This document shows positions 20,686 to 22,424 of a stretch of 64,000 nt of DNA, in pieces. The notes under the pieces are model-generated. The model saw nothing but the letters and a program-made list of their open reading frames with translations, did not search any database and was not told where the DNA came from. The stretch lies in assembly GCF_003790525.1 (NCBI RefSeq), contig NZ_CP033635.1; one strand, written 5' to 3'. A program made the position numbers and the translations under genes. Source of the stretch: Escherichia coli. Lineage in GTDB: Bacteria; Pseudomonadota; Gammaproteobacteria; Enterobacterales; Enterobacteriaceae. Within the stretch, counting starts at the first letter, position 1; the number at the start of each line of letters is the position of its first letter.

Positions 20686-21474
20686 ATGAAACAATATAAA
20701 GGCGGTTATAACGTGAATAGATATGACTGGAAAAATAAAACAACTGAGCATTTATTGAATGATAATAATCTGGCAGATAATCACATACCTGAATGGATCA
20801 GAAAAAATGAAATTGCAGCATTCTGGTTCTGGTTAATTATGTCTCATACAGTTCCCGAAAAACTTAAACTTAATAATGAATCTGAGTTCAACTCTGCCTT
20901 GAAGGGGGTGATCGTTATGAAGGATAACCCCATGACAATTATTCCTTCAAGTCATGAAACACGACTGAATGTTATAGGGAAATGGATTAATGCGTTAATC
21001 CTTTATGGGGAAGCAGATCGGATTATCTCAATAATGCATCAAAACTGGCTGGGACTCGAAAAGAGAAACGAAGCCAAATGGCTTAAAAAGAATACCGAAC
21101 AACTGAAATGGGCATGGGAATATATTGATGCACGTATCTCACCCACATATCTTTCCTGGTTTAATCCTGTAAATGATAACGAAAGATATATTGCCATTGT
21201 AGTTTTACTAAAAATGTTATTCCCCACAGACACACCCTGTTTACTGACGCCAAAAGAATTTCACCTAGGATTCGCTGCAAAAGAAAGATTTTTCGACAAG
21301 ATGCACAATGCATTCAGAAAACAGTTTATCGATGGAAAAAAAGATAAACGGGTACAAATCAACGTAAAGATATCGCCATCCGCAAAAAGCGCTCTGGACA
21401 GACTGACCAGAGAGCGGAAAACAACACAGCAGGCTATTCTGGAACAACTGATTCTGTACGGTAGACTGGATTAA
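20686..21474 (+). CDS. hypothetical protein (low-GC cargo gene A; C-terminal ribbon-helix-helix-like segment)
   Basis: Track ORF starts at GTG 20599; I prefer ATG 20686 (GAGG ~12 nt upstream), giving 262 aa. N/K-rich, AT-rich codon usage unlike flanking island genes; C-terminus KISPSAKSALDRLTRERKTTQQAILEQLILYG looks RHH-like. No family assigned from memory. Confidence 0.5.
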   Translation: MKQYKGGYNVNRYDWKNKTTEHLLNDNNLADNHIPEWIRKNEIAAFWFWLIMSHTVPEKLKLNNESEFNSALKGVIVMKDNPMTIIPSSHETRLNVIGKWINALILYGEADRIISIMHQNWLGLEKRNEAKWLKKNTEQLKWAWEYIDARISPTYLSWFNPVNDNERYIAIVVLLKMLFPTDTPCLLTPKEFHLGFAAKERFFDKMHNAFRKQFIDGKKDKRVQINVKISPSAKSALDRLTRERKTTQQAILEQLILYGRLD

Positions 21475-22424
21475 CTTTCACCACTTTCGCTCCTGGCGAT
21501 TTTCTTCTTTTTGTAGTGTCTGCTTGCTGCGGGCATCAGGTATTTTTCCGTCATTTTGTTGCAGAACGCTTCAATGTAGTTAACCATTTTCTGGTGTGCT
21601 TTCACCTTTTCCTCCCCAGGGGACATTTTCAGATAAATGTCCTCCTTTTCCACAAGTGCATTTATAAACTCCTCTAAACATCCCTGGTTATAAAGCGACG
21701 TGAAAAACAACACATTCCCCAGTCTCTCCAGTAATTGCGATTTAACCCTGTATTGTTGTTTTCTGAGAATTGATTGTTTTCTAAAGCTCAGTCTTGTTAA
21801 AAGTTGTTCAAATCTTGGTTCAAATTTAAAAACAGATTTTAATCTTAGGGATTGATACTCCTGATAAAACAGTTCAAACGTCGGGGATGCTGACCGAAGA
21901 ACAGGTCGGGCCACAGCCCGTGGACTAAATCCCATGACTGAGATTTCCTTTCCCTCCTCCTGCAAGTTCAGAGGCAGTTCAGCAATCCATGCGTCCAGCT
22001 TAGCTGAATCGCTCTCCTTTCTCAAAACCTCATACAAACTGCCCGTGAACGGTTGAGCCGATTTTGGGGTTGCTTCACCTTTTGACTGTCTGAATCCATC
22101 CACTTTTCTCCGGATACTACGCGGAATCAGCATAAAAGGCGGGGCATTAAGAGATAAATGTTTACCAGTCATACGATGGCATTGTCCCACCTCGATCCAA
22201 CAGGAAAATTTACTAACCGACCTTATCTTAAGCGCAATTATGTTAAGCAGGTACAGATAACGCACCGTATAACGATTAAAATGTTTCTCAGGATCAAACG
22301 ATTCTGACCGTTCCCCTCTGTACACAAGTCCACTACGCTTCAGTATTCGCTGGGTATCTTTCCAGGCCTGACTTTTACAAATGCTCATTCGGCGTAGCGT
22401 ATTAATCGACAGTGATGCCATCAC
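21471..22424 (-). CDS. hypothetical protein (low-GC cargo gene B; lysine-rich C-terminal tail)
   Basis: 317-aa ORF convergent with gene A, stop codons overlapping by 4 nt; transcribed divergently from the GTPase gene; ends ...RHYKKKKIARSESGES. No family assigned. Confidence 0.5.
   Translation of the reverse strand: MMASLSINTLRRMSICKSQAWKDTQRILKRSGLVYRGERSESFDPEKHFNRYTVRYLYLLNIIALKIRSVSKFSCWIEVGQCHRMTGKHLSLNAPPFMLIPRSIRRKVDGFRQSKGEATPKSAQPFTGSLYEVLRKESDSAKLDAWIAELPLNLQEEGKEISVMGFSPRAVARPVLRSASPTFELFYQEYQSLRLKSVFKFEPRFEQLLTRLSFRKQSILRKQQYRVKSQLLERLGNVLFFTSLYNQGCLEEFINALVEKEDIYLKMSPGEEKVKAHQKMVNYIEAFCNKMTEKYLMPAASRHYKKKKIARSESGES

Follow-up and report, generated by a model that had tools for sequence, protein, structure and literature searches.

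Two convergent genes in a CP4-57-type island

The window, i.e., the whole 64,000-nucleotide (nt) stretch of Escherichia coli contig NZ_CP033635.1 analyzed here, holds a degraded CP4-57-type genomic island beside the aerobactin (iuc/iut) region and ynjB. Within this island lie two convergent open reading frames (ORFs), here called A and B, both of which carry the RefSeq product name "hypothetical protein." We tentatively read the pair as a control module of such islands. The genes and their immediate neighbors are:

20686-21474 (+): gene A, WP_000816188.1, 262 amino acids (aa), ATG at 20686 (RefSeq)
21313-21471 (+): coding region of the likely CopB/RepA2/CopG-like ribbon-helix-helix (RHH) segment at the C-terminus of A, residues ~210-262 (profile matches and model)
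21471-22421 (-): gene B, WP_000157733.1, 316 aa, ATG at 22421 (RefSeq)
21471-21474: TTAA palindrome common to both stop codons
18311-19042 (-): inovirus Gp2 family (YfjJ/YagK-like) gene, first gene of a leftward operon (RefSeq)
22527-23411 (+): YeeP/YfjP-type GTPase gene, first gene of a rightward operon, divergent from B

A first-pass annotation of the window had described two convergent ORFs that share a 4-nt stop overlap and do not form an operon. The ORF list and RefSeq agree with this description, save that B has 316 rather than 317 aa: the list gives B as 21471-22424 (-), and the RefSeq ATG sits one codon inside that GTG start. For A, the list also holds an in-frame GTG at 20599, upstream of the ATG. 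The 4-nt overlap is kept in all seven E. coli allele types sampled (7/7), while outside E. coli the 3' ends overlap by up to 26 nt or lie up to 121 nt apart.

The pair is AT-rich against its flanks, as the same annotation had remarked. The guanine-cytosine (GC) content is 0.374 in A, 0.430 in B and 0.382 in the spacer to the left of A (19043-20685), vs. 0.507 in the Gp2-like gene, 0.536 in the GTPase gene and 0.496 in the whole window. The AT-rich tract is wider than A plus B, at ~3.4 kb, and begins about 1.6 kb further left (~19100), a feature missed at first pass. The proposal that low GC marks a separately acquired insert did not survive comparison with other genera. In Citrobacter, Hafnia and Serratia, and at three metagenomic loci, GC is just as low in A, B and the spacer (0.33-0.45, vs. 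0.52-0.56 in their neighbors), and low GC is therefore a family trait in every genus and not a sign of recent insertion.

Protein features and family searches

Protein A (pI 9.5) combines an all-helical N-terminal domain, with conserved tryptophans (W37, W47, W121, W132, W144), and a C-terminus that is likely an RHH-like DNA-binding domain, as predicted from profile matches. The first-pass suggestion of an RHH-like segment thus holds in that the signal recurs across homologues, and falters in that it is weak in the window protein itself (NF010256, E 0.027; RHH_1, E 0.14; RepB-RCR_reg, E 0.32). NF010256, described as "replication regulatory protein RepA" (CopB/RepA2), matches the C-termini of three homologues at E 7e-5, 1.5e-3 and 0.015, RHH_1 is found at E<0.1 in 4/8, and precomputed PF10723 (RepB-RCR_reg) matches fall on C-terminal fragments of A relatives; all RHH-type matches of the A family lie below the curated cut-offs. 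The model of A has helices at 231-243 and 248-257, and the cross-genus homologues keep a C-terminal motif (VQI.VKIS..AK..LD.L......TQ...LEQLIL).

Protein B is more basic (pI 9.9; 10.7 for its N-terminal 125 residues). Seven residues (W20, Q24, K106, L129, Y130, E188, F240) are invariant across the family, as are an RRK motif at 104-106 and the basic tail. The lysine-rich tail singled out at first pass is real: a basic tail is kept in 28/28 aligned homologues, even in genera where the A and B genes do not overlap. No catalytic constellation is visible among the conserved residues of this 28-sequence alignment, and neither A nor B contains a catalytic motif or a transmembrane segment; both are soluble, basic proteins. 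The AlphaFold model of B, built from the same alignment (which reaches down to 23-30% identity), is confident (predicted local distance difference test, pLDDT, 83; predicted template modeling score, pTM, 0.82), and has no structural neighbors outside the protein's own family.

Beyond the weak RHH signal of A, searches of PADLOC, NCBIfam, PHROGs, Pfam (single sequences and every member of both alignments) and PDB sequences (single sequences and profiles) gave no meaningful match to A or B. In PADLOC-DB v2.0.0, a library from 2023, no family matched at E<=1 for A, B, ten homologues or the 407-aa variant described below; Pfam, NCBIfam, PADLOC and PDB gave no match to a known toxin fold or family in B or in the N-terminal domain of A, and Rfam gave none in 18500-23000. 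Homology to YfjH, YfjL/AbpA, YfjM and RnlAB of K-12 CP4-57 was considered and rejected, there being no matches. A literature search by WP accession and gene name found no paper on these proteins in the library searched. The initial failure to place either protein in a described family therefore stands after sequence-family, profile and structure searches, and the B family is without a Pfam, NCBIfam or PHROG model and without a structural neighbor.

Distribution and co-occurrence

The two genes travel together. Profile hidden Markov models built for A and B were run on every ORF of the loci studied (E. coli, Citrobacter, Hafnia, Serratia and metagenomes), and the convergent neighbor of B proved to be an A homologue in 11/11 distinct loci (E 1e-111 to 5e-34), three of which were not used for building the A model; A homologues of other genera share 24-32% identity with the window protein. 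Across 5,426 complete E. coli genomes, B occupies 818 places in 742 genomes (~14%), and carriers of the pair include CFT073, S88 and the type strain ATCC 11775. Gene A of the window type occupies 615 places and the very divergent type of strain 55989, missed by the first DNA search, another 203; these add up to 818, equal to the places of B, in a total that may double-count a few places (three records matched at only 60-80% identity). Co-occurrence of the pair elsewhere, which the first-pass annotation had left to be checked, is thus supported both by the loci and by the counts.

Outside this setting the family is sparse. A word-indexed search of 5.8 billion proteins returned A relatives of E. 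coli type only and B relatives named Escherichia or Enterobacteriaceae, plus one fragment cluster labeled as a Negativicoccus metagenome-assembled genome (MAG). An exhaustive profile search of 1.84 billion representatives returned only 48 B relatives, the named ones from Citrobacter, Hafnia, Serratia and one Acinetobacter-labeled MAG. Species-representative genomes hold only 2 loci. Gene B was found in none of 50,697 phage records, in 2/72,556 plasmids and at one locus in IMG/VR, an identical E. coli copy.

Island context and synteny

A is divergent from the leftward operon across a 1.64-kb spacer, and B from the rightward operon across 105 nt. After the Gp2-like gene, the leftward operon holds a second YfjJ-like gene and AlpA (17077-17313); the rightward operon continues from the GTPase into DUF932, antirestriction, RadC/JAB, DUF987, CbeA/CbtA, DUF5983, DUF957 and DUF4942 genes. 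This backbone (AlpA, Gp2-like, GTPase, DUF932, antirestriction, RadC, CbtA) is syntenic across genera. In 11/11 loci a Gp2-like gene, accompanied by AlpA and zinc-ribbon genes, is found 0.4-2.8 kb past the start of A, and the GTPase is the divergent neighbor of B in 8/11, its place otherwise being taken by a WYL regulator, an insertion sequence (IS) or conjugation-type genes. In a metagenomic locus (L012, 1-7341), the A/B-Gp2-like-AlpA module adjoins TraG-like conjugation genes and the GTPase is missing, so the A/B module occurs also in conjugative-type elements. For analogous islands of Pseudomonas, IntY, AlpA, RadC, Gp2-like and helix-turn-helix genes have been proposed as the likely core, and no such pair is described (PMC12595487).

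Gene order departs from two known arrangements of small DNA-binding proteins. Type II toxin-antitoxin (TA) genes are co-directional and co-transcribed, whereas A and B are convergent in 11/11 loci. A ParG/omega-type partition cassette does not fit either: the neighbors of A are B, which lacks an NTPase motif, and beyond B an MMR_HSR1-type GTPase, and no ParA ATPase was found at the loci.

The pair does not occur in all islands of CP4-57 type. K-12 CP4-57 has no relative of A or B and carries abpBA, yfjM and rnlAB in the interval, which upholds the earlier remark that the position is the usual slot for variable cargo, in K-12 occupied by the defense genes abpBA and rnlAB. As a description of the pair itself, "variable cargo" is not supported, since synteny with the Gp2-like/AlpA module is unchanged from genus to genus and a 26-nt element is kept in every genus; it is right in part, in that the cassette is replaceable and hypervariable (see below). 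Within E. coli, the GTPase subtype found here occupies 2502 places in 1870 genomes, and a B-superfamily gene (the A/B pair or the 407-aa gene) is present at 1885 of these 2502 places. The slot can accept foreign defense genes, and most often holds a B-superfamily gene, whether A accompanies it or not.

Two further observations concern the surroundings. TIR-domain genes adjoin the Gp2-like genes at L013 (10313-11287), L015 (1-366) and L017 (95-799), and known defense-type cargo therefore sits on the other side of the Gp2-like module. In the window itself, 14100-16310 and 28900-29500 hold IS1 and other transposase remnants and frameshifted ProQ/FinO-like and DUF4942 genes.

A hypervariable cassette and its alternative allele

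Comparison with E. coli islands that lack A/B defines the replaceable unit:

20148-22451: hypervariable cassette made up of the upstream region of A, A and B (comparison with 407-aa islands)
5677-6900 of loci L019, L020 and L021: 407-aa gene of E. coli islands without A/B

The cassette bounds follow from the fact that islands with the 407-aa gene have only 18311-20147 and 22452-23411 in common with the window; a bidirectional terminator-like hairpin (20116-20133) stands at the left boundary. Across six E. coli islands, nucleotide identity is 90-99% in the Gp2-like and GTPase genes and drops to 46-67% in 20511-21310, with sharp mosaic block boundaries. At the protein level, identity is 93-100% for the GTPase and 87-100% for the Gp2-like protein, vs. 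21-100% for the N-terminal domain of A, 27-98% for its RHH segment and 36-100% for the C-terminal part of B. Overall, A and B are 21-92% identical within E. coli. The pair that reaches ~14% of complete E. coli genomes occupies the most divergent segment of otherwise near-identical islands. Covariation between A N-terminal and B C-terminal alleles was considered and rejected (97% vs. 66% between L004 and L016; 38% vs. 92% between L015 and L016): these alleles reassort freely.

Synonymous divergence (dS) is 0.25-2.3 in A and B vs. 0.06-0.2 in the flanks, and the ratio of nonsynonymous to synonymous divergence (dN/dS) is 0.33-0.50 in A, 0.39-0.63 in B and 0.11-0.27 in the GTPase. The A/B alleles are old, under purifying selection and exchanged by recombination. 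One might read A and B as decaying or non-functional frames in H-NS-silenced AT-rich DNA, given their low GC, the want of a family assignment, the many fragmentary or frameshifted copies in databases and the degraded state of the window's island (IS remnants, frameshifted ProQ/FinO and DUF4942 genes). We consider this extremely improbable: full-length intact pairs with conserved motifs are present in hundreds of genomes and several genera, the B model is confident, the regulatory elements described below are conserved, and dN/dS of 0.33-0.63 together with conservation in several genera identifies A and B as real genes rather than decaying DNA.

Three of the islands sampled lack A/B and encode, in the slot and orientation of B, a 407-aa hypothetical protein (WP_001107219.1 / WP_001773856.1) that is not partnered by A. 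This protein is distantly homologous to the N-terminal and central regions of B (B-profile E 3e-11; motifs W..TQ, IRR and GGLY) and bears an extra ~100-residue cysteine-rich basic N-terminus; its gene is found at 1067 places in 975 E. coli genomes at 95-100% nucleotide identity. The 407-aa family thus resembles B in slot, in orientation and in being divergent from the GTPase, and differs from A/B in being a single gene, in its cysteine-rich N-terminus and in being nearly invariant where A/B is hypervariable.

Candidate regulatory DNA

Both ends of the cassette, the A/B junction and the adjoining spacer contain sequence features of possible regulatory function:

20507-20564 (+): four copies of GAATAGTT (spacing 12, 21, 12 nt), upstream of A
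22444-22469 (+): 26-nt element TCCAGATTTTTTCACGCCCATATTAC, in the B-GTPase divergent intergenic region
22481-22503 (+): palindrome/hairpin AACCGGAT-N7-ATCCGGTT, arms compensatory between genera at 5/8 pairs
21487-21499 (+): terminator-like hairpin and T-run just after the stop of A, inside the tail codons of B
19043-20147: AT-rich backbone spacer, skewed towards adenine, with no annotated gene, between A and the divergent Gp2-like/AlpA operon

Helically phased repeat arrays are typical targets of RHH proteins. The GAATAGTT array overlaps the only promoter-like site on the strand of A and is a candidate operator array for this protein. Phased repeats precede A elsewhere as well: four copies at exact 11-nt spacing in L004, GCATGTTT three times at 11 nt in Hafnia (L007) and a different motif three times at 22 nt in L013. 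Summed over 10 loci, a helically-phased chain score of 25 compares with a mean of 16.4 and a maximum of 20 in dinucleotide shuffles (0/300 reach 25). Individually, the window, L004, L007 and L013 are at P<=0.01, the window and L004 being related and hence not independent.

Each B-bearing locus, whatever its genus, has a single copy of the 26-nt element (TCCAGAWWWTYTCAC-N4-ATATTAC) upstream of B; K-12 CP4-57 has none. The ATATTA/TAATAT hexamer of this element could act as a -10 element in both directions. The palindrome at 22481-22503 could be an operator or a hairpin in the 5' untranslated region. In Hafnia alvei (L007, 8001-8039), the B homologue (329 aa) is annotated from a start upstream of the 26-nt element, which probably makes the N-terminus of the Hafnia protein too long. 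Promoter assignments are tentative throughout, since a simple sigma-70 scan found fewer promoter-like sites than in shuffles.

The T-run after A (21487-21510 region) is the complement of the KKKK codons of B, and no comparable terminator-like signal follows the stop of B, whose transcripts probably read antisense into A.

The spacer is 70-96% conserved among E. coli islands, including islands without A, and contains tandem units of 12-13 nt (AAAWACTTAGTA, 19955-20008) whose copy number varies between islands. It ends at the 20116-20133 hairpin; candidate roles are those of an origin, a long leader and a non-coding RNA locus. An optional insert in this spacer encodes a 176-aa hypothetical protein (WP_000778605.1; L003, 2813-3343; L020, 3984-4514) with no PADLOC match. 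A pseudogene in the window's spacer was considered and rejected, as the 176-aa protein of strain 55989 leaves no remnant there. A 44-codon ORF at 20128-20262 (-), MAVILVVKRDHFPG..., which stops at the terminator-like hairpin, is kept in close alleles but frame-broken in 55989, and is probably not a conserved protein.

Island control or conflict?

Our favored, though tentative, reading is that A and B are island-intrinsic DNA-binding control proteins that make up a hypervariable, immunity-like regulatory module of CP4-57-type islands. Protein A would dimerize through its C-terminal RHH domain and bind the phased direct repeats before its own promoter, and probably also sites in the spacer shared with the Gp2-like/AlpA operon, thereby setting the level of excision and replication functions. 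Protein B, very basic and equipped with the RRK motif and the basic tail, would act on nucleic acid at the promoter region shared with the rightward operon—a region conserved across genera from which B itself would be expressed. The tail-to-tail layout would then arise because each regulator is divergent from the neighboring operon that it controls, a simpler account than the mutual antisense control suggested at first pass; transcription of A and B into one another could bring interference as well. The deep allelic diversity would prevent cross-regulation between sister islands that reside together, and deeply diverged mosaic alleles with dN/dS below 1 are, by analogy, the pattern of mobile-element immunity regions.

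We count in favor of island control the strict co-occurrence and cross-genus synteny, the recurrent RHH signal of A and the basic nature of two proteins without a catalytic motif, the phased repeats in unrelated alleles, the 26-nt element and covarying palindrome before B, low GC as a family trait, an alternative allele that is again of the B family, and the absence from phages and near-absence from plasmids. Several points weigh on the other side. We infer DNA binding by A and by B from their sequences, and the RHH matches of the window's A fall below every curated threshold. The RHH segments of the window and L015 are 93% identical, yet their 20511-20610 regions are 36% identical, and the type of RHH allele does not obviously covary with the proximal promoter sequence. 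The free reassortment of A N-terminal and B C-terminal alleles gives no support to a tight, allele-specific complex of A with B. Nor is the pair essential to the backbone, being missing from K-12 CP4-57 and other related islands. Finally, hypervariability in a conserved frame is equally typical of conflict systems.

The main rival, which we rate as possible but somewhat less likely, is that A and B form an undescribed two-gene conflict system (anti-phage defense, abortive infection, a TA-like pair or island exclusion), with B or the N-terminal domain of A as a novel-fold sensor or effector and the RHH domain of A serving autoregulation or antitoxin-like neutralization. The pair sits where CP4-57 holds abpBA and rnlAB, in a replaceable cassette with sharp boundaries and with ancient mosaic alleles amid flanks of 87-100% identity; TA and antirestriction genes abound in the islands, some of which have TIR-domain genes nearby, RHH domains are common in antitoxins and defense regulators, and B is a confident orphan fold. 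Yet A, B and ten homologues have no PADLOC match (in the 2023 library, with newer systems outside it), no nuclease, NTPase, TIR, protease or membrane domain and no conserved catalytic residues were found in them, and the alternative at this site is homologous—the B-like 407-aa gene—rather than an unrelated system. The genera have synteny and promoter elements in common, TA pairs are not typically convergent, and the spread is narrow where most defense systems range wider (0/50,697 phage records, 2/72,556 plasmids, one IMG/VR locus). A more specific variant, to which we give somewhat less credence still, takes the whole B superfamily (A/B pair plus 407-aa form) as a new class of island-borne conflict module, in which a novel-fold protein would be brought to DNA by its RHH partner A or by a fused cysteine-rich N-terminus, would sense or block phages or rival islands, and would have its alleles kept by diversifying selection. 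Replication control, a narrower form of the regulator reading, is the least probable of these alternatives, and we regard it as doubtful: the excised island would replicate as a rolling circle through the Gp2-like initiator, A would control copy number or bind the origin in the manner of CopG/RepB-RCR_reg or CopB/RepA2, the AT-rich tandem-unit spacer would serve as that origin, and B would assist by binding DNA. The best matches of the C-terminus of A are indeed replication-control RHH proteins (NF010256 RepA2/CopB, E 7e-5; PF10723), A is divergent from the Gp2-like (REP_ORF2-G2P) gene in all loci, and the spacer between them is conserved, AT-rich and skewed towards adenine, with variable-copy 12-13-nt tandem units. 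Against this, replication of these islands is only presumed, the spacer is present also in islands without A, the matches are weak and span only ~45 residues, the 200-residue extra domain of A is unlike small Cop proteins, and the role of B is left unexplained.

Comparison with known systems and implications

CP4-57-type islands are present in most E. coli, often in several copies, and carry virulence, resistance, toxin-antitoxin and defense genes; to our knowledge, little is understood, AlpA aside, about how excision, replication and gene expression are controlled in them. If A/B is a regulatory or immunity module, it would explain the coexistence of sister islands, whereas if it is a defense or exclusion system, it would add a new one missed by current tools.

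Three groups of known systems offer points of comparison. The Cop/RepB-type repressors—CopB/RepA2 of IncFII, CopG and RepB-RCR_reg—resemble A in its last ~50 residues, a basic, putative strand-helix-helix segment (NF010256, PF10723, PF01402), and A likewise adjoins a replication-initiator-like gene and sits near phased DNA repeats. However, A has 262 aa, its RHH is C-terminal and follows a 200-residue helical N-terminal domain without a known relative, its scores are 14-23 bits against a cut-off of 87, and binding by A is predicted. AbpAB and RnlAB of K-12 CP4-57 occupy the same slot between a YfjJ-like gene and a YfjP-type GTPase, but they have no sequence relation to A/B, which is without a PADLOC match; A/B keeps its synteny and promoter elements from genus to genus, whereas abp and rnl are unrelated insertions.

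The immunity regions of temperate phages and satellites (lambdoid cI/cro; the face-to-face pR/pL switch of coliphage 186) share with A/B diverged mosaic homologous alleles in a conserved element, regulators divergent from the operons they control (for A/B, a predicted role) and convergent overlapping transcription. The proteins themselves are different, A and B being unrelated to cI, Cro, Apl and CII; there is no lysis-lysogeny decision to be made, and switch behavior of A/B would be a prediction from this likeness. Set beside these systems, what appears to be new here is, tentatively, a mobile-element control or immunity cassette that pairs an RHH protein with a new partner family.

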